A stretch of DNA of 64,000 nt from Nitrospirota bacterium (GCA_040758355.1 JBFLWF010000012.1:15870-79869); one strand, 5' to 3'; positions 28,487 through 63,168 are shown, counted from the stretch's first letter. Program-made: numbers and translations. Notes: generated by a model not told the origin, from the letters alone.

Positions 28487-28786
28487 CTATAACTCCTTCC
28501 CGGCATTCGCAGTAATTGTTATCTTCTGGAACCATAAAATCCCTTTCAAAGGTGACAGCATTCCTTTTAAAGTATTTTGTATTAATGTCTTTGCAAAGTC
28601 TTTTTTTATGTCTATCTCTCCATTTTCGGTATAAATACGAAGCTCATCGTATTCGATACAGATGGTTACATTCCTTGGGTTATAGCCCAGGGACCTCGCA
28701 ATTGCACACAGGACGTTTGCAATATAATTCTGTGTAAAGTCATTAAGGGGAACTACACGATTATTTACCAGAAGGCTCGTTTTCAA
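28487..28786 (-). CDS. Hypothetical protein (LxVN..VPLNxF repeat, MobB C-terminal-like)
   Basis: Operonic ORF with internal duplicated motif. Confidence 0.55.
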   Translation of the reverse strand: MKTSLLVNNRVVPLNDFTQNYIANVLCAIARSLGYNPRNVTICIEYDELRIYTENGEIDIKKDFAKTLIQNTLKGMLSPLKGILWFQKITITANAGKEL

Positions 28787-29390
28787 TTGTGTTTTGCGTT
28801 CTTGAAATTATTAAAGCTGTTATTCCCGCACCTGCAGAATAGAATTTACTACCTTGTTCGAAATTTTTAATCTCCTTTGCAAGTTCGTCTATCCAATTCA
28901 GATGACTGCCGAGAAATTCCATTTGTTCCTCAATGTCTCCATTAATGCATAAAAACGCCATATACTCCATCTCAAGTGCTATGTGGTCTGGCATGGATGA
29001 ATATTTATCCGGTATGACGATGTCGCGAGCCTGATAGCGCTTGATCATGTCCATCGCAGGGTCTCCCATCAGATAGCCTTTCTCTCCCGCCATAGGCAGC
29101 CTGCATTCGGGATCGCTCGACCATCTCTTATAAACGCTTTCAACAGGAACGATATAAGGCGGTAACGGGCCCTCAAATAGCCTTCTGTATTCATCTTTAA
29201 GAATATTATATACATCACCGCTTACTAAAAACCCCGAAAGGCAGGATGTATCAAGATCGAGTGCAGAGAATACTTCTTTGAAATAGTCGAGGAGTCTGCC
29301 TGACGCGACATCATCGGCAAACTCCTCTGTGGGTTCCTTGAAAAACTCACTTAATTGAGCGTATAGGTTTGCCAGGAATACTTTATTCAA
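28761..29390 (-). CDS. TorD/DmsD-family chaperone
   Basis: PVESVY, PDHIALEMEYMAFL, HLNW. Confidence 0.9.
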   Translation of the reverse strand: MNKVFLANLYAQLSEFFKEPTEEFADDVASGRLLDYFKEVFSALDLDTSCLSGFLVSGDVYNILKDEYRRLFEGPLPPYIVPVESVYKRWSSDPECRLPMAGEKGYLMGDPAMDMIKRYQARDIVIPDKYSSMPDHIALEMEYMAFLCINGDIEEQMEFLGSHLNWIDELAKEIKNFEQGSKFYSAGAGITALIISRTQNTIENEPSGK

Positions 29391-29925
29391 GCTTTAATCG
29401 CTCCAGATAAATGGTAGACGGCTTTGTTCCAAACTTATTTATATCACGAAACCACCGTCCATCTGACTTTGCTTTCGCAATGAGATCGTCGGACTTCCCG
29501 AAACTCAATGCATGTCCCGGGCACTTGGTAACACATGCAGGTTTTTCATCCCTCGCAAGCCTGTGTGCGCAATATGTGCATTTGTCAGCAACCATTTTAT
29601 CCTCATCAAACCCCATGGCTCCGTAAGGACACGCCCATGAACAATAACGGCACCCAATACATTTGCTTTTGTCTATAAGCACAACGCCGTCTCCTTCCCT
29701 TTTATAAATCGCTCCGGTAGGGCATGCCTGTTTGCAAGCAGGCTTTCCGCAATGCATGCACGGCATTGAAACAAAGTAGAGCTTATTGCCTCCTTGCGGA
29801 TTCACCCATATTAACTTGGTTCTGTATCTGCCTTCCCCTATGCCATTTTCAAGTTTGCACGCAGTCTCGCATGATTTGCATCCAATGCATCTTTCTAAAT
29901 CAACCATTATCGTATATCGACTCAT
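29383..29925 (-). CDS. 4Fe-4S dicluster subunit (DmsB/NrfC family)
   Basis: CIGCKSC..C, CMHCGKPAC..CP, CIGCRYC..CP, KCTYC..C..CP. Confidence 0.93.
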   Translation of the reverse strand: MSRYTIMVDLERCIGCKSCETACKLENGIGEGRYRTKLIWVNPQGGNKLYFVSMPCMHCGKPACKQACPTGAIYKREGDGVVLIDKSKCIGCRYCSWACPYGAMGFDEDKMVADKCTYCAHRLARDEKPACVTKCPGHALSFGKSDDLIAKAKSDGRWFRDINKFGTKPSTIYLERLKLE

Positions 29926-29940
29926 TTTCCGCCTCCTTTG

Positions 29941-32337
29941 CTATGCCTTTGTTACTTTGCATATCAGCGCTTTAAAATTTATCTGATCGGAAACAGGACA
30001 CCTCTTGTTCTTATCAACAATAAAGTTTAACGATTTCCACTGGGTAAACGGCTGTTTTTCGGAATATGTGTTCGGCACGAAAACAGTGTCTTTCCTGATA
30101 CCCTCATAAACCCATGCCTTTGCAAATACATACCCCTTCAGTCCCTCTACCTTTACCTTATCGCCGTTCTGAATTCCTATTTCTATCGCCTTTTCAGGAT
30201 GTATCATGCAGTACTGGTCGGGCGTCTGCTCGCAGAGATTCCAGAGCCAGTGGCTGCCGTCGCCAAAGTGTGCCGCGGATGGCCTGCCTGATGTAAGATA
30301 CATGTCAAAGCCCGACATCTCGGGCTTCTCGGGATATTTGATCTTTACCCGCCGCGCCCTCATGTTGCCTACAGCCACTATGCCTTTCATCAGAGAGGTA
30401 ATGCCCACCGACGAATCGTCATCAAGATATTCAAGATAAGGAAGACCGTCCTTCATCCCGATCTCAGGGTCAACATAAAATTCAGGCAGGGGACTCAATC
30501 CCTGAGCCTTATACATTTTTTCCAAATCCTCAGTCCATATCTCAATCTTTCCTGAGGGTCTCGGGAACTGGCCTTTCTTGCCGGGCACTCCGTGCTTCTC
30601 GGTATAAAGAGTGCCTATCTCTGGAGCGTCCGGAGTCGGAAGCGGTCCTCTCAACGCGCCATCCTTCTTAGCAAAAAATCTCTCGGGCGAAAAACCTGTC
30701 TTCTTAGCCATCGCCCTTTGTAAAACCACAGGGTCTTTGTATTCGTCCTTAAATATATCTCCCCACCCCATCTTCTTGCCGAGTTCGATAAATATCCATC
30801 TTTCGGGTTTTGCCTGATGCAGCGGCTGGATGACCTGAGGTACAAATACGTTTCTCCTCTCATCGGAAACAGGAGCAACCCCTCCTGATTCGGCCCATGG
30901 AGACACAGGAAGAATATAGTCGAAATAGAATGTCTCTATGCTCGGAAACATATTGTAGTACACGGAGACCTCAAGGTTATCCAGCGCCGTCATTACCCTT
31001 TCGATGTCTCCCCATTGTACGAGCGGATTGCAGCATGCCATGAATGCCTTTATGGGATAAGGCTTCCCTGTGATCATCGGCTCAACCCATGCGATAGGAG
31101 ACCTTCCGAGCCTCTGTTTTTTTGGTTTTACTTCCTTATCGGCAGGCACGGAAATGCTTCCCATTGGCGTTGCGCCTGTATTTCCGCAGCCGTATCCCAT
31201 TGAAGGCTTTCCGAAATGACCTGTTATGGCGGCAAGCATAAAGAACGCCCTGTGGGTCAGATGGCCGTTTGTGTGGTGGCTCAAGCCGGCGTTGCCCATG
31301 ATTATCGCCTTTTCAGTCTTTGCGTATTCCTCCGCAAGCTCTTTAATCGTCTTTGCAGAAATTCCCGTAATTTTCTCAGCCCATTCGGGTGTGTATTTTT
31401 TCTCGATAAGAAACGCCTTGAGTTTATCAAAGCCAAGCACCTTATTATTTATGAAGTCCTGATTTTGCAGGTTCTTCTCTATGATGTGATACATCATAGA
31501 AAGCGCCAACGCCATATCTGTCGAGGGCTTTATCGGGAGCCATACATCTGCCCTGCTTGCAGCCTCGGACATCCTCGGGTCGACCACAATAAATTTTGTC
31601 TTCCTTTTTATCCTTTCATCATTCGTTGCTCCGAACGCTACAGGTTTACATGCAGCCATATTACTGCCGACAAACATGTACCAGTCTGCGCCGCCGAAAT
31701 CTTCTCTCGTGTATGTCCACGGCGGGTTGTTATGTCCTAAAATGGAATTTGAAGCGGTCGTTCCCGCAAGATTACAAAAAGGGCCGGTTCCTTCGCGATG
31801 CGGAGTGCCGTAAAGTTTCTCGAACGTCCCTGTCAGCCCCGCTCTTGCCTGGGATTCGCTCCTACCTCCGGTCCACCACGCAAGCGCCTCGGGGCCGTAT
31901 TTCTCTTTAACCGCTTTAAGTTTATCTGCAATCTCAGTTAATGCCTGCTCCCAGCTTATCTCCTGATATGATTCCGGCTTGCCCCTCGGCCCTATGCGCT
32001 TTAAAGGAGCCTTCAGGCGGTATTTGTTATACAGCATGTTCACGCTGTTCTGTCCCTTCGGACAGAGCTTGCCGCCTGTTACAGGGTCGTCAGGATTGCC
32101 GTAAATATTAATAATCCTCCCTGCCTTTACATGCACCTTCATGCTGCATCCCGTCTGACACCATTGACAGCCTGCTGTCACCGCCCTGTCGGGCATAGGC
32201 GCTATACCGCTTTCGGCATATGGTTTATGGGTTTTAAAATTTTCCGTGCCTTTTACACTTAAAGGCATTCCCGCAACTGCCGCAGCGGCGCCTGCAACCT
32301 TTAGAAATGTCCTTCTTGAAAGCCTTAGCTTATCCAT
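29941..32337 (-). CDS. Tat-exported molybdopterin oxidoreductase catalytic subunit (DMSO reductase family; substrate unknown)
   Basis: SRRTFLK, CQWCQTGC..LCPKG, VDPR, IHPEKA; GGAGG RBS. Confidence 0.92.
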   Translation of the reverse strand: MDKLRLSRRTFLKVAGAAAAVAGMPLSVKGTENFKTHKPYAESGIAPMPDRAVTAGCQWCQTGCSMKVHVKAGRIINIYGNPDDPVTGGKLCPKGQNSVNMLYNKYRLKAPLKRIGPRGKPESYQEISWEQALTEIADKLKAVKEKYGPEALAWWTGGRSESQARAGLTGTFEKLYGTPHREGTGPFCNLAGTTASNSILGHNNPPWTYTREDFGGADWYMFVGSNMAACKPVAFGATNDERIKRKTKFIVVDPRMSEAASRADVWLPIKPSTDMALALSMMYHIIEKNLQNQDFINNKVLGFDKLKAFLIEKKYTPEWAEKITGISAKTIKELAEEYAKTEKAIIMGNAGLSHHTNGHLTHRAFFMLAAITGHFGKPSMGYGCGNTGATPMGSISVPADKEVKPKKQRLGRSPIAWVEPMITGKPYPIKAFMACCNPLVQWGDIERVMTALDNLEVSVYYNMFPSIETFYFDYILPVSPWAESGGVAPVSDERRNVFVPQVIQPLHQAKPERWIFIELGKKMGWGDIFKDEYKDPVVLQRAMAKKTGFSPERFFAKKDGALRGPLPTPDAPEIGTLYTEKHGVPGKKGQFPRPSGKIEIWTEDLEKMYKAQGLSPLPEFYVDPEIGMKDGLPYLEYLDDDSSVGITSLMKGIVAVGNMRARRVKIKYPEKPEMSGFDMYLTSGRPSAAHFGDGSHWLWNLCEQTPDQYCMIHPEKAIEIGIQNGDKVKVEGLKGYVFAKAWVYEGIRKDTVFVPNTYSEKQPFTQWKSLNFIVDKNKRCPVSDQINFKALICKVTKA

Positions 32338-32365
32338 ATCAAACCCTCCTTCTATCCGTATCAAA

Positions 32366-34499: not shown

Positions 34500-36272
34500 C
34501 TAAAATTCAAACTCGGCTCCAAGAACAACCTTTGAGGCAGGGTCGGCCTTTTGTCCATTCGCCTGCTGGTAAACTGCCGAAGGAACAAAATACCCAGCTT
34601 CTGTAAAACCCCTCAGACGTTTATAGATCGGGAAATTGAGATCGAGATCTATGCCCCATCCAATATCCCTTGTCTTTTCGGTTGTGAGAGAAGCCCCGCT
34701 GCTCCAGTCTATTCCGGGCACGGGACCCCTTCCTTTATAAACGATCTCTGTTGTCCAGTATCTTGCGAGGGCAATATTCGTTTGAAGGCTCTTAACAGGC
34801 TCGAACCCTGCAATTGCCCTGATAAATGTAACATTCGCGAGGTTGCTATCCCATAGATAATACCCAGCCCTCAAATCCTCGCTGAATATGTTTCCGAATT
34901 TCCTTCTGTCCTTGCATAGAAATAACCCTCTGAAATTTTTATAATCGCCGTTAACAGGATCGTCAACCTTGTTTCCCGATCCCCTCCCGAACTCCAGACC
35001 TGCCGAAAACTTCTTTAAAAAGCCCACATTGCCGAAATGATAATCGCCCCTCAGCAGAAAGGCATAGGCAGATAAATCCCTTGTATTGGTATACTGACCT
35101 GTAAGATAGATTAAGTCAGCCATGTATGAGATTCTTTCTCCTTTCCCTGACAGTGCGATGCCGAGCCAGAGAGGTTCAAAACTTCCGTCGCGCGGCGTAG
35201 TGTTTAAATTAAAATCCTTATCGAGGTTTAAATCAGGGTCGCCAAACTTACCCCTGTCAAATACCTTGAGGACATATGGCTCTATGTTCAAATCCCTCCT
35301 GGGCTTTATATTAAAGCTGATGAGAAAGCCATCCAGCTTGTTTGCAATGCCGAGGGCAGCGCTCCTGTCTCCGGCAGGCCCTGCTCCGAAGTTGTTGTAA
35401 TTCCTGAATCCTCCTGCAACAGCTATATATGTCAAATTCCCTGTGATCCTTCCCATAGGTGTCTGGCCAAAGGGATAAGAGATCTTGAATGCATCCACAG
35501 GACCTTCGAGCACTACACCATCATTTCCTGCCATGACATTTTGCCTGCCTGCCTTCGCAATAAAATCGCCCGTATACTGGACGTAGAGCTCCCTCACTAA
35601 TGCTGAGTTTACCGTAAGAAACTCTGACCATCTGTCGAGGGTGCCTTCGCTGTCTTCCTTCCAGTCAAACACAAAGTTCCCTTTGTCAAAAAGCACTACC
35701 CCTGTTATTGGGCCGTAGTCCGCCTCGATTTTCAACTGAAACCTCTGATCAAAATAGGTAGTGTTGTCGTATGTCCATGCCTGTCTCGGATTGTTGAGAT
35801 TGATATTATCCTTTACATTCAGCCGCAGTTTGTATTTCCCTGAAAATGCAAATTTCGTCTTCTCTTTTGCCTCCTCTTCTTCTTTTGCCGTCCTGGCATC
35901 TAATTTTCTTTTCCACGTCTCAAGTTCTGTAAGTCTTCTTCTTGCTTCTTCATCCCTCGCTTTCTGGATATCCGTTTCAACCACCGGCTCGCCCCATTCA
36001 TCTGCTGCTTCCTTTTTATCCTTTGCTTCGGCAACTGCAGGCTTTGAAGGAATAGCTGCCGGAGCAGGCTTTTTTTCCTGCAGGAGCCTATTCACCAGTG
36101 ACTCGAGGTCAGAGACGCGCTTCTCCAGTTTTTGAATATAGCCCTTTGTCTCATCATCAAGAGGGGAGGCTGCGTATGCCGATAAAGATGATGCTATCAG
36201 AGAAAAGACCATAAAGGTTGTTATTAAAATGTATCTGACAAAAATTATCGTTTTTTTCTTTTCAATGCTCAT
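34500..36272 (-). CDS. Outer-membrane beta-barrel with N-terminal coiled coil
   Basis: Signal peptide, coiled coil, amphipathic strands, C-terminal AEFEF. Confidence 0.75.
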   Translation of the reverse strand: MSIEKKKTIIFVRYILITTFMVFSLIASSLSAYAASPLDDETKGYIQKLEKRVSDLESLVNRLLQEKKPAPAAIPSKPAVAEAKDKKEAADEWGEPVVETDIQKARDEEARRRLTELETWKRKLDARTAKEEEEAKEKTKFAFSGKYKLRLNVKDNINLNNPRQAWTYDNTTYFDQRFQLKIEADYGPITGVVLFDKGNFVFDWKEDSEGTLDRWSEFLTVNSALVRELYVQYTGDFIAKAGRQNVMAGNDGVVLEGPVDAFKISYPFGQTPMGRITGNLTYIAVAGGFRNYNNFGAGPAGDRSAALGIANKLDGFLISFNIKPRRDLNIEPYVLKVFDRGKFGDPDLNLDKDFNLNTTPRDGSFEPLWLGIALSGKGERISYMADLIYLTGQYTNTRDLSAYAFLLRGDYHFGNVGFLKKFSAGLEFGRGSGNKVDDPVNGDYKNFRGLFLCKDRRKFGNIFSEDLRAGYYLWDSNLANVTFIRAIAGFEPVKSLQTNIALARYWTTEIVYKGRGPVPGIDWSSGASLTTEKTRDIGWGIDLDLNFPIYKRLRGFTEAGYFVPSAVYQQANGQKADPASKVVLGAEFEF

Positions 36273-37212
36273 GACGTTTTTCGCTTCCGACTCCATAGAA
36301 TATGGGGATTTCCTTAACCTTTCCATCACGCCCCATTACTTTATCCACCTTCCTCTCGCGGGTGTGGCACTCTATGCAGACGAGGCGTTTTAAAAGGGGT
36401 TTAAAGGTATAGGGATTTTCTGGATGTACAGCAGTAAAGAAGGGTATCCCGCCTTCATCTTTTCTCTGTACAAATAATTTCAACGGGCCATAAGGTTGTA
36501 TTCTGGATTCTCTTATTATCTTTGCCTTTTCAATGCACTCCTCCATACCCGTTTCACCGACAATTGCCTTTGAAAAACACTCCATTACAGCCTTTTCGTC
36601 AACAACAGCCTCTTTAAGTCCTTCCTTAGGCGCATATGCCTCATGACAGGTTGCACAGGTCATCTTTTTGAGTTCCTTAACTTTCACTACCCTGAAGGTC
36701 TGAGGAAATATATCGTTTATAATATTTCTATTCAGCCATTTGAGGTCTTCTTTGCTCCTCGTCTTGTTATACTCTGTCTCCGACTTTTTAGTCTCGCTGC
36801 CGAAAGCAACAATGCCCTTTAATTGGGAGACAAGATTTTCATCCATCAGGAGTCTGTTTATCTCATTAACAACGATGGTCTTTTCATCGCTGTTCAATAC
36901 TCCGGGCTTAAAACCACTTATGACCATTTTTGCTTCTGCACTTAATGGCAGAATCTTGAGTTTAGCCTGAAGATTCCTTAAAAAGTCAGGCCAATCCCTT
37001 ATTTCATCCATGGAAAAATCCGCAGTCCTCTGGCTCATGGCCTCAAGATGAATGGCATGGGGATGAGGATATTTCTTACCCTGTTTTGTTACAATGCCTC
37101 CATCCGTCCACTTTATGGCCTCTGACCATGCTGTAGCGGCAATCAACCCGAAAGCCATAATGCCGATTGCTGCAATTGATATTACAAGACGGTTTAAGCG
37201 ACTGTTTCGCAT
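36262..37212 (-). CDS. Periplasmic diheme c-type cytochrome
   Basis: Signal/TM segment; CATCH and CIECH. Confidence 0.75.
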   Translation of the reverse strand: MRNSRLNRLVISIAAIGIMAFGLIAATAWSEAIKWTDGGIVTKQGKKYPHPHAIHLEAMSQRTADFSMDEIRDWPDFLRNLQAKLKILPLSAEAKMVISGFKPGVLNSDEKTIVVNEINRLLMDENLVSQLKGIVAFGSETKKSETEYNKTRSKEDLKWLNRNIINDIFPQTFRVVKVKELKKMTCATCHEAYAPKEGLKEAVVDEKAVMECFSKAIVGETGMEECIEKAKIIRESRIQPYGPLKLFVQRKDEGGIPFFTAVHPENPYTFKPLLKRLVCIECHTRERKVDKVMGRDGKVKEIPIFYGVGSEKRHEH

Positions 37213-37910
37213 ATCTCCTCTCCTTCCTTACAGACCTTTGCATAGAGTTCTGAAACATATTCTTCTTCGCTCTTCATAAACTCTATTATGAAATTGGCAA
37301 CGGCCTTATAAAATCCGTATTCCGCCCTTTCGATGATCTTTTCACAGCATCGATACACCCACTTTAAAAGGTGCTCTTCCAAAAACATCTTCTGGAACTC
37401 GACACATTTCTGTAGCGATTCAATCCCGGTCTTTTCCCATGACTCCCTCTCTATCCCGCAAAGAAAGGCCATAAACTCCAATTCCATTCCAAGGTGATCC
37501 GGCATCTCGGTGCACTCTTTTAGAATATCCGCTCCCGCCTTTTCATAAAATTGGCCTACGCTTATGGTAATCCTGCCTCCGAGTTTCTTATCTTTGTCGA
37601 GATACACGGCCTCGTGCGGCAACAAATCCGACGGAAGAACAAACAAAGCGGTATGATCCGCCTCCAATTCTTCCTTAAGGTTCGGCATCTTCTCGGCCTG
37701 CCTTACGAATTCGAACAGTCCCGCGGGATAAGACTCTATACCTTCGCCGTCTTCGTAATTGTCCTGAAAGACCGACAATATGCTTCCGTCTCTTATCATC
37801 GCGATCAAAGAATCCGAAGGCGGCTTAAGACAGAGACCCGATAAAAACCTGTATGTCCTTTCCCTTTCTCCAGCTGTTATGGCTTCAAATTCGCTCACTT
37901 TAACCTCCAT
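37194..37910 (-). CDS. TorD/DmsD-family chaperone
   Basis: PHEAVY, PDHLGMELEFMAFL, EHLLKW. Confidence 0.9.
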   Translation of the reverse strand: MEVKVSEFEAITAGERERTYRFLSGLCLKPPSDSLIAMIRDGSILSVFQDNYEDGEGIESYPAGLFEFVRQAEKMPNLKEELEADHTALFVLPSDLLPHEAVYLDKDKKLGGRITISVGQFYEKAGADILKECTEMPDHLGMELEFMAFLCGIERESWEKTGIESLQKCVEFQKMFLEEHLLKWVYRCCEKIIERAEYGFYKAVANFIIEFMKSEEEYVSELYAKVCKEGEEICETVA

Positions 37911-37912
37911 CT

Positions 37913-39100
37913 CTATGTCGATGCTTTAATAAACCCGTTTTGAATAAACGCCATCTGTTTTTTATGCCTGCTCACACATAAAGGGCATATATCCCCGCCG
38001 ATATCCTGAGATTCGGTATCTCCGGCCGTTTGAACAAATTCGAACCTGCATATGGAGCAGGTCTTTCTTTCGCTTTCAAAAAGCGTGATCTCCGCGTTCT
38101 CCATCAGATAATTCAGCCTTGCCGTCTCTTTTATTTTTATAGCATTAGGCATGCAGGTCTCCACGCAGACCTTGCAGTTAACACACAATGCCGGTTTAAA
38201 GCTCAAATGAAATTTTCCGGCCTCCTGCCTTTGGGTTAAAGCACCGGCAGGACAGAGCGTAGCACAGACACCGCAGCCGGTGCATCCGGAAGATACCTCA
38301 AGCTCCGCAAGTATTGCGCCGGTTGACGGCACATGCGTTTCTTTGGAAGACGAAAACCCCTCAAGCGCCTGCATCAGGAGATTCCTTTTAAAATTTTCGG
38401 GTTTCTTAGAGATAGCTCCGATAAATGTTTCTTTCTGCTCTCCTTCGATTCCGACATCTGGAATGGATGTTACTGCCACCTCAGCCGCCTTTGCCCTGAG
38501 CGCGGAGAATAATTCCCTCCTCGAAACCGCTTTCTCCGGCATTTTCGATAAAGGCTGAAGCGATATGTTCTTTATAACAAGCCTGTCCTTTTCTATGCCC
38601 GCCGTCTCATAAATAATCGAAACGTTATTAATAACCCTGTCGATATTGGTGGAAGCCTTTGAATTCGGACACGCCGCGCATTCGGGGCGCGATATCTCTA
38701 TATTCAAAACGCCCGCCTTTATAGGCTCAAGAAGCGTAGCCTCGCTGAGACGTCCGAGGCACGGCACCATAAGGTCGGCGCTGTCGTCTCCACGCTGACA
38801 TGAAATACGGAATACTTTTGCTTTCTTAGACTTTTCTCTTATTTCAGCAACGATCTTTTCATCAGCCGTTTCCTTCATCCTGAAAACGCCGTTTGGACAC
38901 GCGGAAACGCATACTCCGCAATCTACGCAGCCTGCTTTTATCTCCGCTCCGTCCTCCGAAATGCCGACAGCGTCCGCAGGGCACGAATCGGCGCAGATCG
39001 AACAATCCGATTTCGGCGTCCTGAAACGCGAACATAAAGACGCTTCTATCAGGATATGATGATTATTGATAATTTTATCCGCTACTTCTGCAACTCCCAT
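37913..39100 (-). CDS. Multi-4Fe-4S ferredoxin-like protein
   Basis: Several CxxCxxCxxxCP motifs; start moved past REP-derived extension. Confidence 0.85.
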   Translation of the reverse strand: MGVAEVADKIINNHHILIEASLCSRFRTPKSDCSICADSCPADAVGISEDGAEIKAGCVDCGVCVSACPNGVFRMKETADEKIVAEIREKSKKAKVFRISCQRGDDSADLMVPCLGRLSEATLLEPIKAGVLNIEISRPECAACPNSKASTNIDRVINNVSIIYETAGIEKDRLVIKNISLQPLSKMPEKAVSRRELFSALRAKAAEVAVTSIPDVGIEGEQKETFIGAISKKPENFKRNLLMQALEGFSSSKETHVPSTGAILAELEVSSGCTGCGVCATLCPAGALTQRQEAGKFHLSFKPALCVNCKVCVETCMPNAIKIKETARLNYLMENAEITLFESERKTCSICRFEFVQTAGDTESQDIGGDICPLCVSRHKKQMAFIQNGFIKAST

Positions 39101-39133
39101 GCTTGCACCTCTCAAAATTAGTTTTCGGTTATC

Positions 39134-39170
39134 GGGGACAGTCCCTGTCTTAATAACAGGGACTGTCCCC
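39134..39170. repeat. REP-like doublet hairpin
   Basis: GGGGACAGTCCCTGT-N7-ACAGGGACTGTCCCC. Confidence 0.7.
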
Positions 39171-39188
39171 TTTGCCTTAAAACCCTTA

Positions 39189-39815
39189 CTACTTCGTATA
39201 CAGCGTCGACGGCTCCGTGCTTGTCTTCGCACCGATGAATCCCAGAGAAACCCTCTCTGCCCGTTTCTCCCTGATGAGTTTTGTAAGGGAGTCTATCTCG
39301 CCGAAGAACCTTGTCCTCGCAATACATGTATCAACGCAGGCAGGACGGAGTCCTTTCTCTAACCTATGCACGCAGAGCGTGCATTTTTCCATTACCTTTG
39401 CCTCGGCATTGAACTGCGGATGTCCGTAAGGGCACGCCCACGCGCAATACCTGCAGCCGATGCATTTGTCCTTGTTGATAAGAACTATCCCGTCCTCTTT
39501 CCTCTTTGTGATTGCCCCGACCGGGCAAGCCGCCATGCAGGCCGGCTTCCCTCAATGCATACAGGGCATCGGCACAAAGTAGACCCTTAAATCTGGCTTT
39601 TCCTTCTGATTTTTAAATTCTCCGACTTCGATCTCCATTACCCGGTTGTAATCCACGCCTACGGGAGTATTGTTCTCTCCCTTGCACGCCATGGTGCAGG
39701 CATGGCAACCGACGCAGTATTCGAGATCGACCCAGAGCGTATACTGCTTAGGACCCGGTTTTTTAAAACTGGCCTCTAAGACTTCATCCGGTACAAAAGT
39801 CCCTAATTCCGACAT
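39189..39815 (-). CDS. 4Fe-4S dicluster subunit with in-frame UGA (candidate Sec; otherwise nonsense pseudogene)
   Basis: Two track ORFs join in frame: PCMH-TGA-GKPACMAACP versus paralog PCMHCGKPACKQACP. Confidence 0.85.
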
Positions 39816-39828
39816 ACCGTCCTCCTTT

Positions 39829-42825
39829 TTATAACCTTTCGACCCTTAGAGGCGTACCGAAACTCTGCGTACCACCTCCTATGGGGTCAACCAGCACCCT
39901 ATTTTTCAAAACAGGGTCGGCCATATAAAGCGGGTTTATATGGAAACCTGCGCCTACTCTTTCATCATGAGGCTGCTCTTTGCCGTTCATATGCCACTTG
40001 CCTTTCGGCGAGCCGGCTCCGAACCTTCCGTAAGACTGGCACACAGAGAACAACCCCGGCCTTATCCTGCTTGTAACCCTGATCTGGAATTTAAACCAGC
40101 CGTTGCCAAGATAGTTTGGATAAAACTGTTTTATGAGCTTGCGGAAATTTTTGTACATATCCGTCTCTATTTGTCCGCTGGAAGGAGACTTTGCCTTGAC
40201 CCAGTCGCCTGTCTTAACGCCCAGTCTCTCGGCATCCGCAGGGTTTATCTCCGCATAGTTCTGAGGCTTGATGGATGCGAGCCACAGGTTGTTCATTGTC
40301 CTCGACTGGGTATGGAAGGCTTCCTTATTCGTGTGAAGCTGCATCGGATATTCATTCCAGATCGCTGGATCAAGGGGCTGCTCTTTGCAGTCAACGATAG
40401 TCCTGTACATCGGCAGACCATCCATATACTCGCCAGTCATAGCGTTTTTATATGTGGAGACCTTTTCGAGGAAAGCAAAGAGTACGCGCACCTGCCTGCC
40501 TCCGGGGAATGATGTGTACTCGCCCGAGGAATAGTCTTTTGTGTATTGATGTTTTGGCGACGGGTTCTGGAATTTCCCGCCCAGCTTCACAAGACTGCTT
40601 TTCGGGTCCAATCCATCCTTAAAGTCTTTGTGCTTATAATATTCGTTCCAGAACTGCCATGAATTGTTGATATCCACGCCCGGTCCGCCTCCGTCTTTCC
40701 CGAATGCAGGAAGACCGCATTCTTTTGAGATCATTATGAGAATATCATCAGCCATTTTTGTGTCAGGTCTTATGGGCTTATAATCATGGGTCTTTGGATC
40801 GAAAGATCCTACTACAGGCTGTCTTAATGCCCATACCTGTGTTTTTACCGGCGGGTATGTCTTAAATCCTCCGAGTCTTTCGAGGTATTCGGTATCAGGA
40901 AGCACATAGTCGCAAAGCTGGGTCGTCTCTCCCATATATGCATCTATGGAGAATGTCAAAGGCATTGCCTTCAAATCCAAAAGCGCCTCGATAGTCTCCT
41001 GATTATAAGGCATTGTATAGGCAGGGTCGTTGTAGTAATTGAGATATGCCTTATTCTTGTAAGGATACCCCATTCTCACATTGGAGAAGAAGTTCGGAGT
41101 CACGCTTCTCGGAGCGCTATAACCGGAGTACCACGGCCTTGAAGCAGTCGGCTTCTTTCCCTGATATGCAGCCTTTGCCGTGTCGGCCCGGATGCCTGAA
41201 GGCTTCCGTTTTTCCTTAGCCTTTACATCGCCTTTATAAGCCGCATGCCCTGAGATAAAACCGCCTTTCCTGTCGATATTGTCAACGAGCATGTTTATGA
41301 TGCAGAGCGCCTGCCCGTTATACCAGCCGTTTGACTGCTGGACAGGGCCGCGGAACATCTCGATTGCAGGGCGTTTTGCGGATGTGAATTCCTTTGCGAT
41401 GTGGGCGATCGTTCCAGCCGGTATATCGCATACGGCATCGCACTCTGCGAGGGTTTTCTCCTGAGCCCTTTCTCTGAGCATCCTGAATACAGTCTTGTAC
41501 TCAACGCCGTTTAAGACATAGCTTGCATCGAGGTCTGCAAACCCGTCCGCATCCTGAAACATCTTAGGCTGTCCGCCGACAAGCACCACAAAGTCGCTCT
41601 GGCCGAGGCCTGCGTCTTTTCCTGTAAGGTACTTCCTCGGCTTGGTCGTGCTGACAAGGTATGTCATGTCCGTCCAGTTCCTGTAGCCCTTTTTCTTTGC
41701 GACCTTTTCATTTGGTATGGTAAGGTATTCCTTTTTATACCCGTTGTTCTCTATCATCCATCTGATCATACCCAACAGGAAATACGCGTCCGTTGTCGGC
41801 TTTATAGGAACCCATTCGCCAACGCCGTTATGCGTTGCCTTTGCAGCGGCATTCGTAAACCTCGGGTCAACCACGACATGCTTGAAATTCTTTGCATCCG
41901 GATTAAGCCTCTTTCCGAATTTCTGCAAATACCGGGCCCTCGTCTGCATGGGATAGTCTGCCTGAGTGACATTAGAGCCCATGCTTATCAAGTAATCGCA
42001 GTATTCATAATCGCAATAGCTCCCTATTTCGTAGGGAGGTAAATTCAAATTTGCCTCTACAACAGTGTAGAAGGTGCCGGCGCAACGGCTGCAATGGTTG
42101 AGCATATGCGGAACGCCGCAGGCGTCAACGACAAACCTCGGCGTCAGAGGCGACTGCTCATTCCTGCCATGCGCCCAGACAAACTGGTTCCTTTTCGGTC
42201 CCCATCCGCCTGGGGGAGCTTCGTCCATATAGGCCGAATCCTCAGGTCCTATGGGCTTATCGTTGCTCAGTATGGATTTCAATCCTTCAACATTACGGTT
42301 CTCTTCTCCGGGAACATTCTTGAAGAGATAACCGCCGTGGCATATCTCCTTAATAGCCTGATCCCACGAAATGGTCTTCCATTTACCTGATCCCCTCGGC
42401 CCAACTCTTTTAAGCGGATGCTGGAGTCTGAAGGGGCTGTAAAGGGCAAAGATGCCTGCCTGCCCTTTCGGACAGAGCGAACCTACGTCCTTTCCTGTAG
42501 GCCCTGCATCGAGGTCTGACTCCTCGACTATATCGCCCTTAGCAGTATAGTCGTAAGTGTTCGGATGGTAAGGATTGCCCGTAAGCCTCGCAAGCTCTCC
42601 GTTTACTACCTTTGCCTGAATGCCGCACCCTCCGTGGCACATAAGGCAGACGCTTCTTACTATCTTCATCTCTCCGTCAACCGGGTCCGGCTGTGAGCCG
42701 GACTTGCCTATCTGCTTTTTCCACTCTGCTGCCTCAACATCTTTGAAATTCGATGCTACCGCGGCAGCAGTAATAGTAGCTGCAGAAAGCTTTAGAAAAG
42801 ACCTTCTTTTCATCTCGGTATTCAT
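39829..42825 (-). CDS. Tat-exported molybdopterin oxidoreductase, TtrA/SrdA/ArrA-like clade
   Basis: KRRSFLK, CLMCHGGC, GNPYHP, LCPKG, HCSRC; ~1000 aa. Confidence 0.9.
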   Translation of the reverse strand: MNTEMKRRSFLKLSAATITAAAVASNFKDVEAAEWKKQIGKSGSQPDPVDGEMKIVRSVCLMCHGGCGIQAKVVNGELARLTGNPYHPNTYDYTAKGDIVEESDLDAGPTGKDVGSLCPKGQAGIFALYSPFRLQHPLKRVGPRGSGKWKTISWDQAIKEICHGGYLFKNVPGEENRNVEGLKSILSNDKPIGPEDSAYMDEAPPGGWGPKRNQFVWAHGRNEQSPLTPRFVVDACGVPHMLNHCSRCAGTFYTVVEANLNLPPYEIGSYCDYEYCDYLISMGSNVTQADYPMQTRARYLQKFGKRLNPDAKNFKHVVVDPRFTNAAAKATHNGVGEWVPIKPTTDAYFLLGMIRWMIENNGYKKEYLTIPNEKVAKKKGYRNWTDMTYLVSTTKPRKYLTGKDAGLGQSDFVVLVGGQPKMFQDADGFADLDASYVLNGVEYKTVFRMLRERAQEKTLAECDAVCDIPAGTIAHIAKEFTSAKRPAIEMFRGPVQQSNGWYNGQALCIINMLVDNIDRKGGFISGHAAYKGDVKAKEKRKPSGIRADTAKAAYQGKKPTASRPWYSGYSAPRSVTPNFFSNVRMGYPYKNKAYLNYYNDPAYTMPYNQETIEALLDLKAMPLTFSIDAYMGETTQLCDYVLPDTEYLERLGGFKTYPPVKTQVWALRQPVVGSFDPKTHDYKPIRPDTKMADDILIMISKECGLPAFGKDGGGPGVDINNSWQFWNEYYKHKDFKDGLDPKSSLVKLGGKFQNPSPKHQYTKDYSSGEYTSFPGGRQVRVLFAFLEKVSTYKNAMTGEYMDGLPMYRTIVDCKEQPLDPAIWNEYPMQLHTNKEAFHTQSRTMNNLWLASIKPQNYAEINPADAERLGVKTGDWVKAKSPSSGQIETDMYKNFRKLIKQFYPNYLGNGWFKFQIRVTSRIRPGLFSVCQSYGRFGAGSPKGKWHMNGKEQPHDERVGAGFHINPLYMADPVLKNRVLVDPIGGGTQSFGTPLRVERL

Positions 42826-42861
42826 GCTTTCCTCCTCCTTTTTGTTATTAACATAAAGTTT

Positions 42862-44082
42862 TCAAGCCTTCTTCCTGCTCTCAAACCTTAGTTCACCTGT
42901 ATAAACCGGGATGGCAAACTTCAGCAACAGTGTATAAAACAAAGCTCCAAGCGCCCATATCCCTATAGTAATAAAGCCTTCTGCCATCGTAGGCCAGTAT
43001 TCATATATCTCCCCGAGGGTATCGGGAATAAATCCGGGGATAATCAGACCCAGACCCTTTTCTATGTATACCCCAAGGATTATTAATACAGCGCCTATGT
43101 TTAAGGTTTTAAAATTCTCGCGGGTCTTCGGTATCAGGAAGATAATAAAGGCTATGACATTAAATATAAGGGCTGTCCACATCCACGGCACCAATAGTTT
43201 TTTCCCATGCAGTCCGAAATATAGATATTCCAATGGAGCCTTGTGAATGCTGTTAGAATAAAACTCCTTAAATACCTCTGCGCCGAACAGGAAAAGATTA
43301 ATGCCCATGGCATACGCTACCAATTCAGCAATTTTAAAGATTGCCCTATTTTCTATCTCCACTCTTGTGAGCTTTCTGATGACCTGAAACAGAATCAACA
43401 TAATGGCCGGGCCTGAACAAAAGGCAGATGCAAGAAACCTCGGCGCCAGTATGGATGCGTTCCAGAAAGGTCTGGATGGGAATCCATTATATAGAAATGC
43501 CGTTACTGTATGTATGCTCACCGCCCATGGGATAGAAAGCAATATCAATGGCCAGATTAACGATAGCTTGTATTCCTTCCCGATGGAGAGCCTGTACAGG
43601 GCGTAAAGGACAAGAGCAAGGTTTATAAAGAGATACCCGTTCAAGACTATTACATCCCATGCGAGGAGGGAGGATGGGAAATTCATCATTCCCACAACAG
43701 GCAGGAGATGCCAAACCTTTTGCGGCTGCCCTAAATCAACCATTATGAAGAGTATGCACATGGTAATTGCTGTTATAGCAACCATTTCGCCAAAGAGCAC
43801 AATCTCCTTAATGGGTTTAAAATTATATAAATATGCTGGAACTACCAGAAGGACCGCTGCCGCAGCTACACCAACAAGAAAGGTGAAATTTGCTATGTAA
43901 AACCCCCACGATACCTGATCCCTCATAGCGGTTGTGATCAAACCCTTGTCGATCTGCTGGATATACGCGCTAATTCCAAAAACAATCAGTATACAAAGAA
44001 AAGCAACCCATGCATAATACTTTTTACCTCCCCTCGTTATCTGTAGAAGCGCCTTAAAAAAGTTTTTTATCATGTTATACAT
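42862..44082 (-). CDS. NrfD/DsrP-family membrane quinol oxidase subunit
   Basis: WGFYIANFTFLVG, DLG.P, HTVTAFL, RFLASAF. Confidence 0.9.
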   Translation of the reverse strand: MYNMIKNFFKALLQITRGGKKYYAWVAFLCILIVFGISAYIQQIDKGLITTAMRDQVSWGFYIANFTFLVGVAAAAVLLVVPAYLYNFKPIKEIVLFGEMVAITAITMCILFIMVDLGQPQKVWHLLPVVGMMNFPSSLLAWDVIVLNGYLFINLALVLYALYRLSIGKEYKLSLIWPLILLSIPWAVSIHTVTAFLYNGFPSRPFWNASILAPRFLASAFCSGPAIMLILFQVIRKLTRVEIENRAIFKIAELVAYAMGINLFLFGAEVFKEFYSNSIHKAPLEYLYFGLHGKKLLVPWMWTALIFNVIAFIIFLIPKTRENFKTLNIGAVLIILGVYIEKGLGLIIPGFIPDTLGEIYEYWPTMAEGFITIGIWALGALFYTLLLKFAIPVYTGELRFESRKKA

Positions 44083-44097
44083 TTACCAACCTCCCTA

Positions 44098-45030
44098 TTA
44101 AACTTGCCAGCCAGTAAAGAAGTAATAAAATTTTGGCTCAGTATTTATGTCCTCTTTCAACCTGAAGACCCTCTTATTTTCAATAAGGTACCTTATCTCA
44201 CTTTTAGGGTCTAAAAGATTGCCGAACTTCCTTGCTCCTACCGGACATACCTCAACGCATGCAGGATATTTGCCTGCCCTTGTCCTCTGTATGCAGAAGG
44301 TGCATTTTTCCACAACACCTTTATAGCGCGGACGATTCCCAAGATAATGGGTCTCGGGATTTAATTCATTTTGCGGGATATTGGGTTTTGCCCAGTTGAA
44401 GCGCCTTGCGCCATAAGGGCATGCAGCCATACAGTATCTGCAGCCGATGCACCAGTTATAATCGACAACTATAATGCCGTCGGGCTCTTTCCATGTTGCC
44501 TGTGTAGGGCACGCCTTTACGCATGGTGGGTTCTCGCACTGCTGACACTGTACAGGCATATAAAAGAAGCCCTTCTCGGGGACCTCTTTTGGGTTATAGT
44601 ATTTCTCGGAATTTTCGAGATCAATCCATTTATCGCCCTTCTTGAATCGCAGTACAGAAATCCAGTGGACCTGAGGAGTTCGTGATTGGTTGTTCTCTGC
44701 TACACATGCATACACGCAGCGCCTGCAGCCGATGCATCTGGAAAGATCAAGGCCATATCCAAACTTTACTCCGGGCCTTGGCTTTGTTGCACTGATATGG
44801 ATATCCTTCTTCCATTCAAGGGATGCCTCCTTTTCCAGTTTCTCGATTACCCTTTTGATCTCCTCATCCGTCATCTCCTTGAAGTGCTTCTGGGAAAAAG
44901 CATCCCAGTTGAACGCATCTGCAGTTTGCAGCGGAAGGGCTGATGCAGCAAGACCTGCTGCTGCACCCTTCAAGAATGTCCTTCTATCAAGCCTGAGTCC
45001 CATCGGGTTGTTCCTTATTTTCTTTGACAT
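44098..45030 (-). CDS. Tat-exported 4Fe-4S subunit (DsrO/NrfC-like)
   Basis: DRRTFLK; four Cys cluster motifs. Confidence 0.9.
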   Translation of the reverse strand: MSKKIRNNPMGLRLDRRTFLKGAAAGLAASALPLQTADAFNWDAFSQKHFKEMTDEEIKRVIEKLEKEASLEWKKDIHISATKPRPGVKFGYGLDLSRCIGCRRCVYACVAENNQSRTPQVHWISVLRFKKGDKWIDLENSEKYYNPKEVPEKGFFYMPVQCQQCENPPCVKACPTQATWKEPDGIIVVDYNWCIGCRYCMAACPYGARRFNWAKPNIPQNELNPETHYLGNRPRYKGVVEKCTFCIQRTRAGKYPACVEVCPVGARKFGNLLDPKSEIRYLIENKRVFRLKEDINTEPKFYYFFTGWQV

Positions 45031-45043
45031 GGCTGTTTAACCT

Positions 45044-45550
45044 CTACTTTAATTTAATGTCCGCTGGTCTCGTTGGCGGCTGTTTTGGTTCAAACGGTTT
45101 AAACCTCGGCTGATGCGGGTCATGGCAGGTTACGCAGATACGATAAACCTTTTCTCCGTCCCACATTCCTGTGGTCTTGCCGTGAATACCTGCCTTCCAG
45201 TCCCTGATCACAGTTCCATGACACTGGCCGCAGAGGATGTATGATTTCTCATAATCTATCAACTGTCCGTTGGCTAATTTCAATTTGTCCCCCTCATGAC
45301 AGTTGAAACACCACTGCTGATCCTCTGCATGTTTGAGCACTATGTTGGAGTGATTCCCCACCAGTTTTCTCTTTGCTTTGTTAACAGGCAAGTACCTGTG
45401 GCACTTGGAACAGGGATAATTCTCAGGAGGCATGGGCTTGGTTATAATCAGCTTTGGAACATCTTCTTCTGCATTCCCTGAATTAAAGAAGAATGCCGAA
45501 ACAAAAAACAATACCGAGAAAATCACTGCTAACTTGCTTCTTCTCTTCAT
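45044..45550 (-). CDS. Tetraheme c-type cytochrome
   Basis: CSKCH, CFNCH, CGQCH, CVTCH; signal peptide. Confidence 0.88.
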   Translation of the reverse strand: MKRRSKLAVIFSVLFFVSAFFFNSGNAEEDVPKLIITKPMPPENYPCSKCHRYLPVNKAKRKLVGNHSNIVLKHAEDQQWCFNCHEGDKLKLANGQLIDYEKSYILCGQCHGTVIRDWKAGIHGKTTGMWDGEKVYRICVTCHDPHQPRFKPFEPKQPPTRPADIKLK

Positions 45551-45586
45551 CACGGACTCCGTTTTAAAAGATTTTTTAGAATGAAT

Positions 45587-45714
45587 AACAAAAACGATGC
45601 CAGGAATGGAATTCCTTTAAAATCAAGACCATCTCTTCACTGCCTGCAAATATGGACATAAATTGGTTGCAATGGTGCAACTTTGAAATCCTAAATACGT
45701 TGCAGGAATTTAAC
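45587..45714 (-). promoter_or_regulatory. Sigma54 promoter plus two enhancer-like palindromes
   Basis: TGGCAT-N5-TTGTT (45587-45602); GTTGCAATGGTGCAAC (45666-45681); GTTGCAGGAATTTAAC (45699-45714). Confidence 0.7.
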
Positions 45715-47055
45715 TTTATCCGGGCCATGCGGTTCTCTATCTTTTAATGATACCCAGACAGTTTGATGATCTCTTATGGACTTCCTCTTTACAGGCAGAG
45801 TAAAGATAAATCTGCTGCCCTTGCCATGTTCGCTCTCCACATGGATCGTTCCTCCATGCATTTCAACGAGCCTCTTTACAATGGAAAGGCCGAGACCTGT
45901 ACCCTCGATCTTCTCCATTCGTTCTGACCGAAGCTGTTCATAGGCATTGAATATGCTCTCATGGTGCTCTGGCGCAATCCCCTTTCCTGTGTCCCAGACG
46001 ATGACCTCTACCGAATCGTTTATCTCCCCTGCCTTTATTCCTGCCTTGCCTCCGTCAGGGGTGTATTTTATGGCATTCTCCAGAAGATTAATGATTATCT
46101 CTCTAAAACGCATCTCATCTCCGCAGCAATATGTGTCCTTGATGTCTTCTGTTTCAAGCGATATATCGATATTTTTATCCCTTGCCTTTAAATAGAGCAT
46201 CCCTACTGTGTCATGGATTGCATCGGAAATCCTGAATGGCTTTATTGATAACTTAATATTTCCGGTTTCTATCTTTGAAAGTTCCATTATTTCGTTGAGG
46301 AGTGCATTTATATGTTCTATGGCCTCGTCTATCCTTTTCCGGCATAGCTCTCTTTCTTCGGCAGCCGTGCTATAAGAGGTATAAAGCAGCGCTGAAAATC
46401 CCCTGACTGCATTAAGCGGCGTTTTTATTTCATGCGAGAGGTTGGCGATAAAGTTAGACTGTGCAATATACAACCGTTTTATTTCTTCCTGTTTTCTAAA
46501 AAGCCTGTCAGATAGGTATGTAACAAACTAGGCTGTAAGTATAAGCGTGCTGATGAACACAGTCCCATAGATGGAAATAACCTCTATTCCTGCAAAGAAC
46601 ATCGGCCTATCTTTGAATATGCCGAAATGTGGCAAAATGCCGATATGCTTTAGCCCTAAAACGGTACTCTGAAGGATTACAGCAAAGGCTGTAAATCTAT
46701 ATGCCCATTTCTTCGGAAGGATAATGCCTGTTATCACGACATGGAAGATATAGTAATAAAGAAACGGGCTGTCGCAACTGCCCGAAAAATAGATTGCAGC
46801 GCTCAGTGCGATATAATCAAGGCCGATCTGTAAAACAGCGTCACCGAAAAGGTTTTCCGAAGGAAGTCTTAATCTACTTTGAAAATATAAATTATAGGCA
46901 ACAACAGGAACGAGGATTATATAAACCGGGAATATAGGGAAATCGAGTTTAAATATCCCTCTTAATGAGTGTGCTGCCACGAATACAGCCGCACACGCCA
47001 GCCATCTGAGGTTTATGAGCCATTTAAGATGTTCCCTTAACTCAGAATTATTCAT
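45691..47055 (-). pseudogene. Membrane histidine kinase interrupted by one in-frame TAG (46528-46530)
   Basis: [42 protein letters not shown] is continuous in frame; HisKA and HATPase motifs. Confidence 0.8.
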
Positions 47056-62823: not shown

Positions 62824-63168
62824 CTATACACCGAAATTTAAAAAAATGGGATTTGCCTTGATTACATTAAAGAGCCCTTTCAAAGAGCTCATCTCCCCGC
62901 CTTCGACAGAATCCTCTTCCGCAAGACCGCGGAGCTGCATACAGCCTGTTCATATATCAACCTTGAGCCCCCTGCCCACGAGGTCTTCCAGTGCGGACAA
63001 TGCCCGCGGAACCTGCCCTTTGACAATTGAGAAAACACCGTCTCCAGACGCAACAAGCCTCACCTTTTGTCCCTTTTTAAGGGCAGCATCTGCGAGCTTG
63101 AATATGGTGTGGGTGTTTTCAAAACTGTACGGCGTTGTTGAAAGAAACATCACTATCTCCCTTTCCAT
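62824..63168 (-). CDS. DsrE/TusD-like selenoprotein candidate (KVDI-U-TGC-MQLRG)
   Basis: Read-through of UGA 62950-62952 restores a 114-aa DsrE ending 10 nt before the next ATG; GGTC-loop hairpin. Confidence 0.9.

Follow-up and report, generated by a model that had tools for sequence, protein, structure and literature searches.

Is a UGA codon at an iron-sulfur ligand position of a molybdoenzyme subunit a stop, or is it read as selenocysteine (Sec)? The question is raised by a 64,000-nucleotide stretch of DNA from a Nitrospirota bacterium (GCA_040758355.1, JBFLWF010000012.1:15870-79869), hereafter termed the window, with positions counted from its first letter. The window carries on its minus strand the gene for the beta subunit of a TtrA-like molybdopterin enzyme. 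An earlier note, made from the sequence alone, had pointed to an in-frame UGA at a CxxU iron-sulfur ligand position of this subunit. From the comparison of orthologues we hold with high confidence that the TGA at codon 88 is a genuine, conserved Sec codon, and that the beta subunit is a new predicted selenoprotein family. The locus bears a recoding signature, comprising Sec/cysteine (Cys) orthologue pairs, the decoding machinery, purifying selection on both sides of the codon and a synonymous constraint that is restricted to TGA forms.

The beta gene and its in-frame TGA

Direct translation of the minus strand from 39815 to 39189 yields a single frame of 208 codons, the sole break of which is the TGA at codon 88 (39554-39552). 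A mechanical list of open reading frames (ORFs) splits the gene into two pieces of 87 amino acids (aa) (39815-39552) and 115 aa (39536-39189). The codon string ATG CAT TGA GGG AAG CCG GCC TGC runs in frame, and with the TGA translated as U it gives PCMH-U-GKPACMAACP. On translation, the coordinates and codons of the earlier note are correct, and the string joins the two ORFs into one 208-aa DmsB/NrfC-type subunit, as had been proposed. An ATG (Met94) follows six codons 3' of the TGA.

The product is a Fer4_11 four-cluster ferredoxin of the PsrB/TtrB/DmsB-like type (104.2 bits against a Pfam cut-off of 26.2). Its 15 Cys and U88 fill 16 ligand positions, with zero extra Cys, and the motif around the TGA reads C85-x2-U88-x4-C93-x3-C97-P. 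A paralogue on the minus strand (29925-29383) reads SMPCMHCGKPACKQACP; its translation has the PCMHCGKPAC of the earlier note at the position matching the U88 motif. The TGA region was also recovered in an independent assembly, since a contig from a separate study spans 39449-39693 with 0 differences to the window.

Recurrence of the TGA among orthologues

Relatives were sought in 61 genomes of the same order, and matches of at least 85% identity were retained. Six genomes, this one included, have such a match, with TGA at codon 88 in five and TGT in one. A scan of contigs from GTDB species kept 80 loci, of which 57 reach 54% identity or more across the full protein length and are considered orthologues. 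The five relatives from the 61-genome search recur among these loci (identical protein ends) and were counted once. Codon 88 of the resulting 58 orthologues (57 loci and the window) is TGA in 13 and TGC or TGT in 45. The TGA is therefore not private to this assembly, but recurs at the identical codon in 12 other assemblies from two phyla. The remaining 23 loci are more distant (at most 49% identity), all have TGY at codon 88, and were excluded from later counts.

The TGA carriers comprise ten Nitrospirota/Thermodesulfovibrionia (the window counted) and, from two lineages of Desulfobacterota, one metagenome-assembled genome (MAG) of the Desulfobacterales and two Desulfobacteraceae MAGs. Carriers of the Cys form include other Nitrospirota, Rokubacteria/Methylomirabilota, many Betaproteobacteria, Sedimenticola and, as an outgroup, archaea. 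On a maximum-likelihood tree of 57 rows, for which the codon-88 site was masked and the contig-truncated locus L097 dropped, the Sec/Cys label changes at least five times, and at least two of these changes are forced by well-supported branches. A single Sec clade is rejected by the approximately unbiased (AU) test (log-likelihood difference 80, p 0.0002). Among the Fer4_11 matches listed for the 61 genomes (150 of 304), an internal TGA occurs only in the five orthologues of beta.

Selection around the TGA

The ratio of nonsynonymous to synonymous substitution rates (dN/dS, NG86 method) among ten Sec forms equals 0.037 upstream of the TGA (codons 1-87) and 0.045 downstream of it (codons 89-208). 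The comparison of both sides of the UGA, which the earlier note had suggested, thus gives about 0.04 on each, indicative of purifying selection. Codons 89-93 (G-K/R-P-A-C), which lie between the TGA and the next ATG and include the ligand C93, are in frame and conserved.

Synonymous sites behave differently in Sec and Cys forms. In the ten Sec forms, synonymous pairwise diversity amounts to 0.46 gene-wide versus 0.21 in codons +1 to +14 (rank 4 of 177 codon windows), and the gene-wide minimum is found at +2. The synonymous difference in the successive C-P-V-G-A-I codons is 0, 0.2, 0, 0, 0 and 0. In ten Cys forms of the same clade, the overall diversity of 0.486 compares with 0.58 in codons +1 to +14 (rank 166 of 177), and the C-P-V-G-A-I codons differ by 0.51-0.80. 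These diversities indicate that an RNA element after the TGA is constrained beyond the protein code, and in TGA forms only. The earlier note had cautioned that a hairpin in this region (hairpin B, see below) might just reflect the conserved CPVGA codons. Since the synonymous sites are frozen in Sec forms and free in Cys forms, the hairpin is not a mere by-product of these codons.

Capacity of the genome for Sec decoding

The assembly comprises 2.77 Mb in 93 contigs and is 99% complete; its nearest named relatives are Nitrospirota/Thermodesulfovibrionia MAGs. The genome encodes tRNA-Sec (69.4 bits with Rfam RF01852; anticodon tca according to ARAGORN), SelB (75.3 bits) and SelA (538 bits). Its own SelD gene has an in-frame TGA, and in an FdhA-like gene a TGA lies inside a CARL-U-HAP motif. 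TGA terminates 375 of the 1249 long open frames of the genome; it is thus not reassigned genome-wide and otherwise acts as an ordinary stop. SelA was found in all four Sec-form relatives checked, as well as in one Cys-form relative.

Loss of the Sec pathway was considered as a cause of the Cys forms and is not supported, as the one close Cys-form genome checked (G034) has SelA. The window also contains a DsrE-like gene with an in-frame TGA. This gene, a member of a known selenoprotein family (DsrE-like, UxxC), has two more DsrE-family genes around it.

Candidate hairpins after the UGA

Two stem-loops are predicted shortly downstream of the UGA (Table 1). The loop of the proximal hairpin A (UGCAU) lies at +16 to +20; 85.6% of its cells are paired, with one compensatory pair only, which is not above shuffles. 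The distal hairpin B carries GGUCG in its loop. For the bacterial Sec insertion sequence (SECIS), the bSECISearch model reportedly expects a stem-loop shortly after the UGA with an apical G(U) and a loop at about 16-37 nucleotides (nt), in line with what is predicted here. The full 6-bp stem of hairpin B is present in 9 of the 13 Sec forms versus none of the 45 Cys forms, and its GUC Val codon in 12 of 13 versus 5 of 45.

Loops with GUC also follow the UGA in other genes of this genome, namely in the FdhA-like gene (GUGGCC-AGUCU-GGCCAC), SelD (GGUCC-GUC-GGACC) and the DsrE-like gene (CCGC-GGUCUU-GCGG). The last of these bears out the earlier remark that the hairpin TTGCCC-GGTCG-GGGCAA at 39512-39528 shares a GGTC loop with the DsrE hairpin. 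Because the GUC loop is common to the hairpins of all three genes, hairpin B is the best candidate for the SelB-binding SECIS apex. The 45 nt after the UGA of beta itself fold with -20.3 kcal/mol versus -13.7 +/- 2.7 kcal/mol in 1500 synonymous recodings, 1.1% of which are equally stable; this minimum free energy (MFE) test uses the codon usage of the genome and is valid solely for its own sequence. Applied to other loci, the MFE test does not separate Sec from Cys forms, as, for example, the Cys forms L047, L061 and L046 also fall into the lowest 1-2%, and it is not comparative evidence.

The Cys-Pro-x-Gly-Ala codons lie 9-13 codons downstream of the TGA. Pro-Val-Gly is encoded by CCN-GUN-GGN, which half-builds a mini-hairpin with a GGUN loop in every family member. 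The hairpin being half built into conserved codons, this may explain why recoding arose at codon 88.

Several observations weigh against the reading of codon 88 as a hairpin-directed Sec codon. Regarding the hairpins, covariation is weak: in the 13 Sec forms a single pair shows a double change, 33 of 500 shuffles score at least as high, and most stem columns of hairpins A and B never vary. The GUC of hairpin B lies at +34 to +36 versus about +20 to +28 in the three reference genes, i.e., about 8-14 nt further from the UGA. In the two Desulfobacteraceae Sec forms hairpin B is mismatched, and the best fold is another hairpin, GCAUGCC-AGGC-GGCAUGC. An Rfam scan of 39440-39600 (E up to 10) detected neither a SECIS nor any other credible family, and only an 11.5-bit chance match to a long non-coding RNA. 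Moreover, any family member forms part of hairpin B by virtue of its CP(V)GA codons, and a 4-bp core is kept in 9 of the 45 Cys forms. As to the comparisons, dS is saturated in many pairs, such that the dN/dS values draw on 14 (upstream), 32 (downstream) and 24 (third partition) usable pairs of 45. The group for the AU test was named after the tree had been seen. Finally, the Sec forms are kin, and therefore counts of Sec versus Cys forms overstate their independence. The earlier note had asked whether a conserved hairpin accompanies the TGA. This holds for the full hairpin B of nine Sec forms; it does not extend to the mismatched Desulfobacteraceae forms, nor is it borne out by covariation. 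Given that the Desulfobacteraceae forms fold differently, we infer the SelB-binding hairpin rather than observe it.

The Desulfobacteraceae Sec forms (L062:6262-6321 and L068:5462-5521) harbour the perfect 7-bp GCAUGCC-AGGC-GGCAUGC hairpin instead of hairpin A. It consists of two self-complementary Ala-Cys codon pairs (GCAUGC), and a weaker version is present in the Cys relatives L064 and L069.

Residue 88 and the FS3 cluster

Electrons pass through enzymes such as NarGHI and PsrABC along a wire of clusters in the order FS0-FS1-FS2-FS3-FS4. The nearest solved homologue of beta is PsrB of the Thermus polysulfide reductase (2vpw_B), with Cys61 of which U88 aligns. Residues 78-174 of beta and 177-273 of Escherichia coli NarH are equal in length and align without a net gap, and U88 corresponds to NarH Cys187. 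In a published table, Cys184, Cys187, Cys192 and Cys227 of NarH are given as ligands of the FS3 [4Fe-4S] cluster (PMC5338063). The CxxU site of the earlier note therefore coincides with a proven [4Fe-4S] ligand, and by alignment position 88 is homologous to a known cluster ligand.

As there are 16 ligand positions and only 15 Cys, Sec88 should bind one iron of the third cluster. Selenium would thus be incorporated at residue 88 and form an Fe-Se bond, and from the alignments we regard a direct ligand role of Sec88 in the FS3 [4Fe-4S] cluster as likely, and as more likely than any other reading. The selenolate could shift the potential of FS3 or alter its behaviour towards oxidants.

Proposed mechanism and alternative explanations

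In the account that we propose, the UGA at codon 88 would be read as Sec, and SelB with Sec-tRNA(Sec) would be recruited by a stem-loop within the ~45 coding nt that follow. The likeliest recruiting element would be UUGCCC-GGUCG-GGGCAA, formed by the Cys-Pro-Val-Gly-Ala codons, and a second hairpin would lie between this element and the UGA. A complete 208-aa beta protein would be made, which would serve as the four-cluster ferredoxin subunit of a TtrA-like molybdopterin enzyme exported by the twin-arginine translocation (Tat) pathway. Sec88, which comes second among the ligand positions of Cys group II (C-x2-U-x4-C-x3-C-P), would most likely bind an FS3 iron, and FS3 would form part of the electron wire between the Mo site on one side and c-type cytochromes and a quinone module of the NrfD/DsrP type on the other. 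We deem this account as a whole, with the Sec codon and the recruitment of SelB by a hairpin, highly probable; the predicted FS3 ligation within it is likely.

A variant of this account accepts insertion of Sec and denies it the role of a simple ligand: FS3 might be a [3Fe-4S] or labile-site cluster, and the selenol might engage in a chemistry of its own, such as a selenylsulfide or persulfide relay of the kind proposed for HdrA Sec197 and BamF Sec19. Loss of the second Cys of a CxxCxxC-type motif indeed gives 3Fe clusters, e.g., in NarH FS4 and in 7Fe ferredoxins. There are also precedents, solved or modelled, for Sec next to a cluster: according to the accessible parts of the reports, Sec197 of HdrA is near a cluster in a Cys-Sec pair and not a ligand (PMC13518236), and Sec19 of BamF is near a [2Fe-2S] cluster (bioRxiv 10.64898/2026.04.10.717634). 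Yet, in beta no spare Cys is at hand for a Cys-Sec pair, all 15 being in the four ligand groups, and the position is Cys in 45 of 58 orthologues and matches NarH Cys187 and PsrB Cys61, which are ordinary cubane ligands. On this analysis, a role of Sec88 other than as a ligand seems unlikely.

Termination at the UGA would turn beta into a pseudogene or a programmed split, in which the 87-aa piece is accompanied by a 115-aa piece restarted at Met94. Such a split matches the public gene calls, which divide the Sec forms, and the protein collection, in which only C-terminal fragments of 115-116 aa are found (P0061, P0063); the ATG six codons after the TGA and a kinase gene broken by a TAG in the same window point the same way. 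However, 13 assemblies share the TGA at the same codon, with dN/dS of about 0.04 upstream as well as downstream. Codons 89-93, with ligand C93, are in frame and conserved between the TGA and Met94, and a split would divide ligand group II. The synonymous constraint in TGA forms only and the presence of SelA in four of four Sec-form relatives further speak against termination, which we consider very improbable. Least credible of all is a selenium-free readthrough of the UGA, in which a near-cognate tRNA (for Trp, Cys or Arg) decodes the codon or, under selenium scarcity, tRNA-Sec delivers Cys. Cys at position 88 is clearly functional, as evident from 45 orthologues, and insertion of Cys at UGA via the Sec pathway occurs in other systems under selenium limitation. 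Against this, the genome has the complete Sec pathway as well as three further selenoprotein genes that share the loop motif, and it uses TGA as a normal stop; the frozen downstream RNA element, too, argues for SelB-dependent decoding.

Sec as a ligand of FS3 is the reading we retain. In a more specific form, which we still judge probable, if with greater reserve, beta would hold a natural Sec-ligated [4Fe-4S] relay at the "second-position" iron of FS3. This site would have been gained or lost at least twice because the Cys-Pro-x-Gly-Ala codons pre-encode most of a SECIS-like GGUN hairpin, and the selenolate would tune the potential or the oxidant/repair behaviour, not catalysis.

The gene cluster around beta

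The beta gene is part of a cluster on the minus strand (34500-45553), the features of which are compiled in Table 1. The cluster (loci L041-L092), including the dihaem cytochrome, is common to Nitrospirota, Desulfobacterota, Rokubacteria, many Betaproteobacteria and Sedimenticola, and is uncharacterised. The alpha-beta pair is found in 56 of the 57 loci, the single miss being a locus that starts inside the neighbourhood of beta, and the core of alpha, beta, polyferredoxin, TorD and barrel is conserved from Nitrospirota to Betaproteobacteria. The module of cytochrome, DsrO-like and DsrP-like proteins occurs only in Nitrospirota, Desulfobacterota and Rokubacteria; the Sec/Cys state of beta does not track with the presence of the DsrO/P-like module.

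Table 1. Features of the beta locus, its neighbourhood and other TGA-containing genes of the genome. Positions are those of the window unless another contig is given; hairpin positions (+) are counted after the U of the UGA.
Feature	Position	Strand	Basis or remark
Beta subunit, 208 aa with predicted U88	39189..39815	minus	Translation; Fer4_11 104 bits; PsrB 2vpw_B E 3.6e-37
Ligand groups of beta	C34/37/40/44; C85/U88/C93/C97-P; C118/121/124/128-P; C145/148/160/164	minus	Translation
In-frame UGA, codon 88, predicted to be read as Sec	39552..39554	minus	Orthologue codons TGA 13, TGY 45; Sec machinery in genome
Candidate proximal hairpin A, AAGCCG(G)CC-UGCAU-GGCGGCUU	39527..39548	minus	+7 to +28; RNAfold and alifold
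Candidate distal hairpin B, UUGCCC-GGUCG-GGGCAA	39512..39528	minus	+27 to +43, loop +33 to +37; RNAfold and alifold
Alpha subunit, 998 aa, Tat signal, Fe4S4 (FS0) domain, Mo-bis(pyranopterin guanine dinucleotide) (Mo-bisPGD) domains	39829..42825	minus	14 nt upstream of beta; TtrA-like
NrfD-type membrane subunit, DsrP-like	42862..44082	minus	DsrP 432 bits, cut-off 350
Tat-signal four-cluster Fe-S protein, DsrO/QrcC-like, all Cys	44098..45030	minus	DsrO 192 bits, cut-off 200
Small multihaem c-type cytochrome	45044..45553	minus	Cytochrome_C7
Polyferredoxin, MvhD/FlpD-like domain; NapF/HdrA2-C-terminus-like; no obvious membrane segment	37913..39232	minus	Beside beta in 53 of 57 loci
TorD/DmsD-type Tat chaperone	37194..37910	minus	Family match
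Signal-anchored protein with two CxxCH (CATCH, CIECH), dihaem cytochrome c	36262..37212	minus	Read from translation
Outer-membrane beta-barrel, Alginate_exp family	34500..36329	minus	In 45 of 57 loci; many misses are loci ending early
DsrE-like gene, TGA at codon 68 (VDI-U-TGC)	62860..63153 (G000:C12:78729-79022)	minus	CCGC-GGUCUU-GCGG hairpin after TGA
FdhA-like gene with in-frame TGA, outside window	G000:C3:41570-43603	plus	GC-rich short hairpin after TGA, GUC loop at +20 to +25
SelD gene with in-frame TGA, outside window	G000:C13:51565-52479	minus	GC-rich short hairpin after TGA, GUC loop at +20 to +25

TtrA is the best family match of alpha, which remains far below the TtrA equivalog cut-off (NF011567; 345.6 versus 1750). 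Likewise, beta scores below the cut-offs for TtrB (NF011569; 149.4 versus 416), DmsB (TIGR02951; 184.4 versus 214.1) and ArrB. By these family scores, the enzyme is only TtrA/B-like.

The listed GTG start of the polyferredoxin overlaps beta by 44 nt, and homology in relatives begins just past the beta stop. Translation therefore more probably begins at Met45 (39100).

A second, smaller molybdoenzyme operon on the minus strand (28761-32364) codes for an 807-aa PhsA/Fdh-like Tat alpha subunit, a 180-aa all-Cys beta subunit and a TorD-like chaperone, and is preceded by PKD/FecR-domain proteins. On the other side of the cluster, a sensor histidine kinase gene (45691-47055, minus strand) with a PilS-like membrane domain, HisKA and HATPase contains a TAG at 46528-46530 (codon 176, LILTA*FVTY); the interruption may reflect a pseudogene, variation between strains or an error of assembly. 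The earlier note had cited the nonsense codon at 46528 as a caveat to the TGA. The in-frame stop exists; yet it is a TAG in a histidine kinase gene, and unrelated to the TGA of beta or to Sec decoding.

Relation to known systems

To our knowledge, Sec in the known selenoproteins is located at catalytic sites or in redox-active Cys/Sec pairs. Beta has the fold family and the four Cys groups of PsrB (Thermus thermophilus, 2VPW chain B), DmsB, NrfC, TtrB and NarH, and like these is encoded beside a Tat-exported Mo-bisPGD alpha subunit, with a TorD chaperone and an NrfD-type subunit. In contrast to these proteins, one of the 16 ligand positions of beta is encoded by UGA. Furthermore, instead of forming a simple alpha-beta-gamma set, beta has c-type cytochromes, a polyferredoxin and an outer-membrane barrel as partners.

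FdhA (Mo/W) and [NiFeSe] hydrogenase (Ni) resemble beta in that Sec replaces a metal-binding Cys, Sec/Cys orthologue pairs exist and a coding-region SECIS follows the UGA. However, their Sec is at the catalytic metal, whereas that of beta is predicted on an electron-relay [4Fe-4S] cluster of a non-catalytic subunit. Several such Sec-at-metal enzymes are Tat-exported and periplasmic (PMC13188914). HdrA, MvhD/VhuD and BamF are Fe-S selenoproteins with a CxxU motif like beta (table of PMC13188914). As far as the accessible parts of the sources go, their Sec stands beside clusters or flavin in Cys-Sec redox pairs and is not a ligand, and the families are unrelated to beta. A protein with an MvhD-like domain is encoded next to beta. 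The predicted selenoproteins with Fe-S motifs (RnfB-like UxxC, 2Fe-2S binders, HgcB) also have Sec in Cys-rich motifs, but none of them is a molybdoenzyme beta subunit. Binding of metals or Fe-S clusters is predicted for about 20% of selenoprotein families, and except for FdhA, FrhA and FrhD the metal-binding roles were inferred from Cys homologues (PMC13188914).

The 2026 table of PMC13188914, which covers 119 prokaryotic selenoprotein families and subfamilies, lacks any entry of the DmsB/NrfC/TtrB/PsrB type or for Fer4_11, and DmsB, NrfC and PF13247 are absent from the text. Term searches of the main texts on BSepDB (PMC13326102) and deep-Sep (PMC12013277) found no mention of iron-sulfur proteins, ferredoxins or molybdoenzymes; their supplements and databases could list the family. 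In the full-text literature searched, we found no report of Sec in a DmsB/NrfC/TtrB/PsrB-type subunit or of a natural Sec-ligated Fe-S cluster. The searched literature and the 2026 table thus agree with the earlier view that Sec as a direct [4Fe-4S] ligand would be unusual in this family. In a collection of 5.8 billion proteins, a search over lengths of 114-364 aa found no full-length Sec form; the Sec forms are represented by fragments of 115-116 aa only, and full-length matches are Cys forms of at most 81% identity. Sec forms present solely as such fragments have been mis-annotated by gene callers. Taken by themselves, the decoding mechanism and the fold family are ordinary; it is their combination that is unusual.

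Implications

If this reading is true, a Sec that holds an electron-transfer [4Fe-4S] cluster represents a natural experiment in exchanging a sulfur for a selenium ligand. Orthologues at 85% identity provide ready-made Cys controls, one of which resides in a genome that has the Sec pathway too. Bioinorganic chemists would gain a testable system, and the prokaryotic selenoproteome a further family. The case also flags a systematic annotation error, as gene callers cut the Sec-form beta genes in two, and suggests how recoding at a site can be prepared in advance by a motif conserved in the protein. Finally, an unstudied TtrA-like enzyme cluster of groundwater anaerobes would be marked as selenium-dependent in some lineages.

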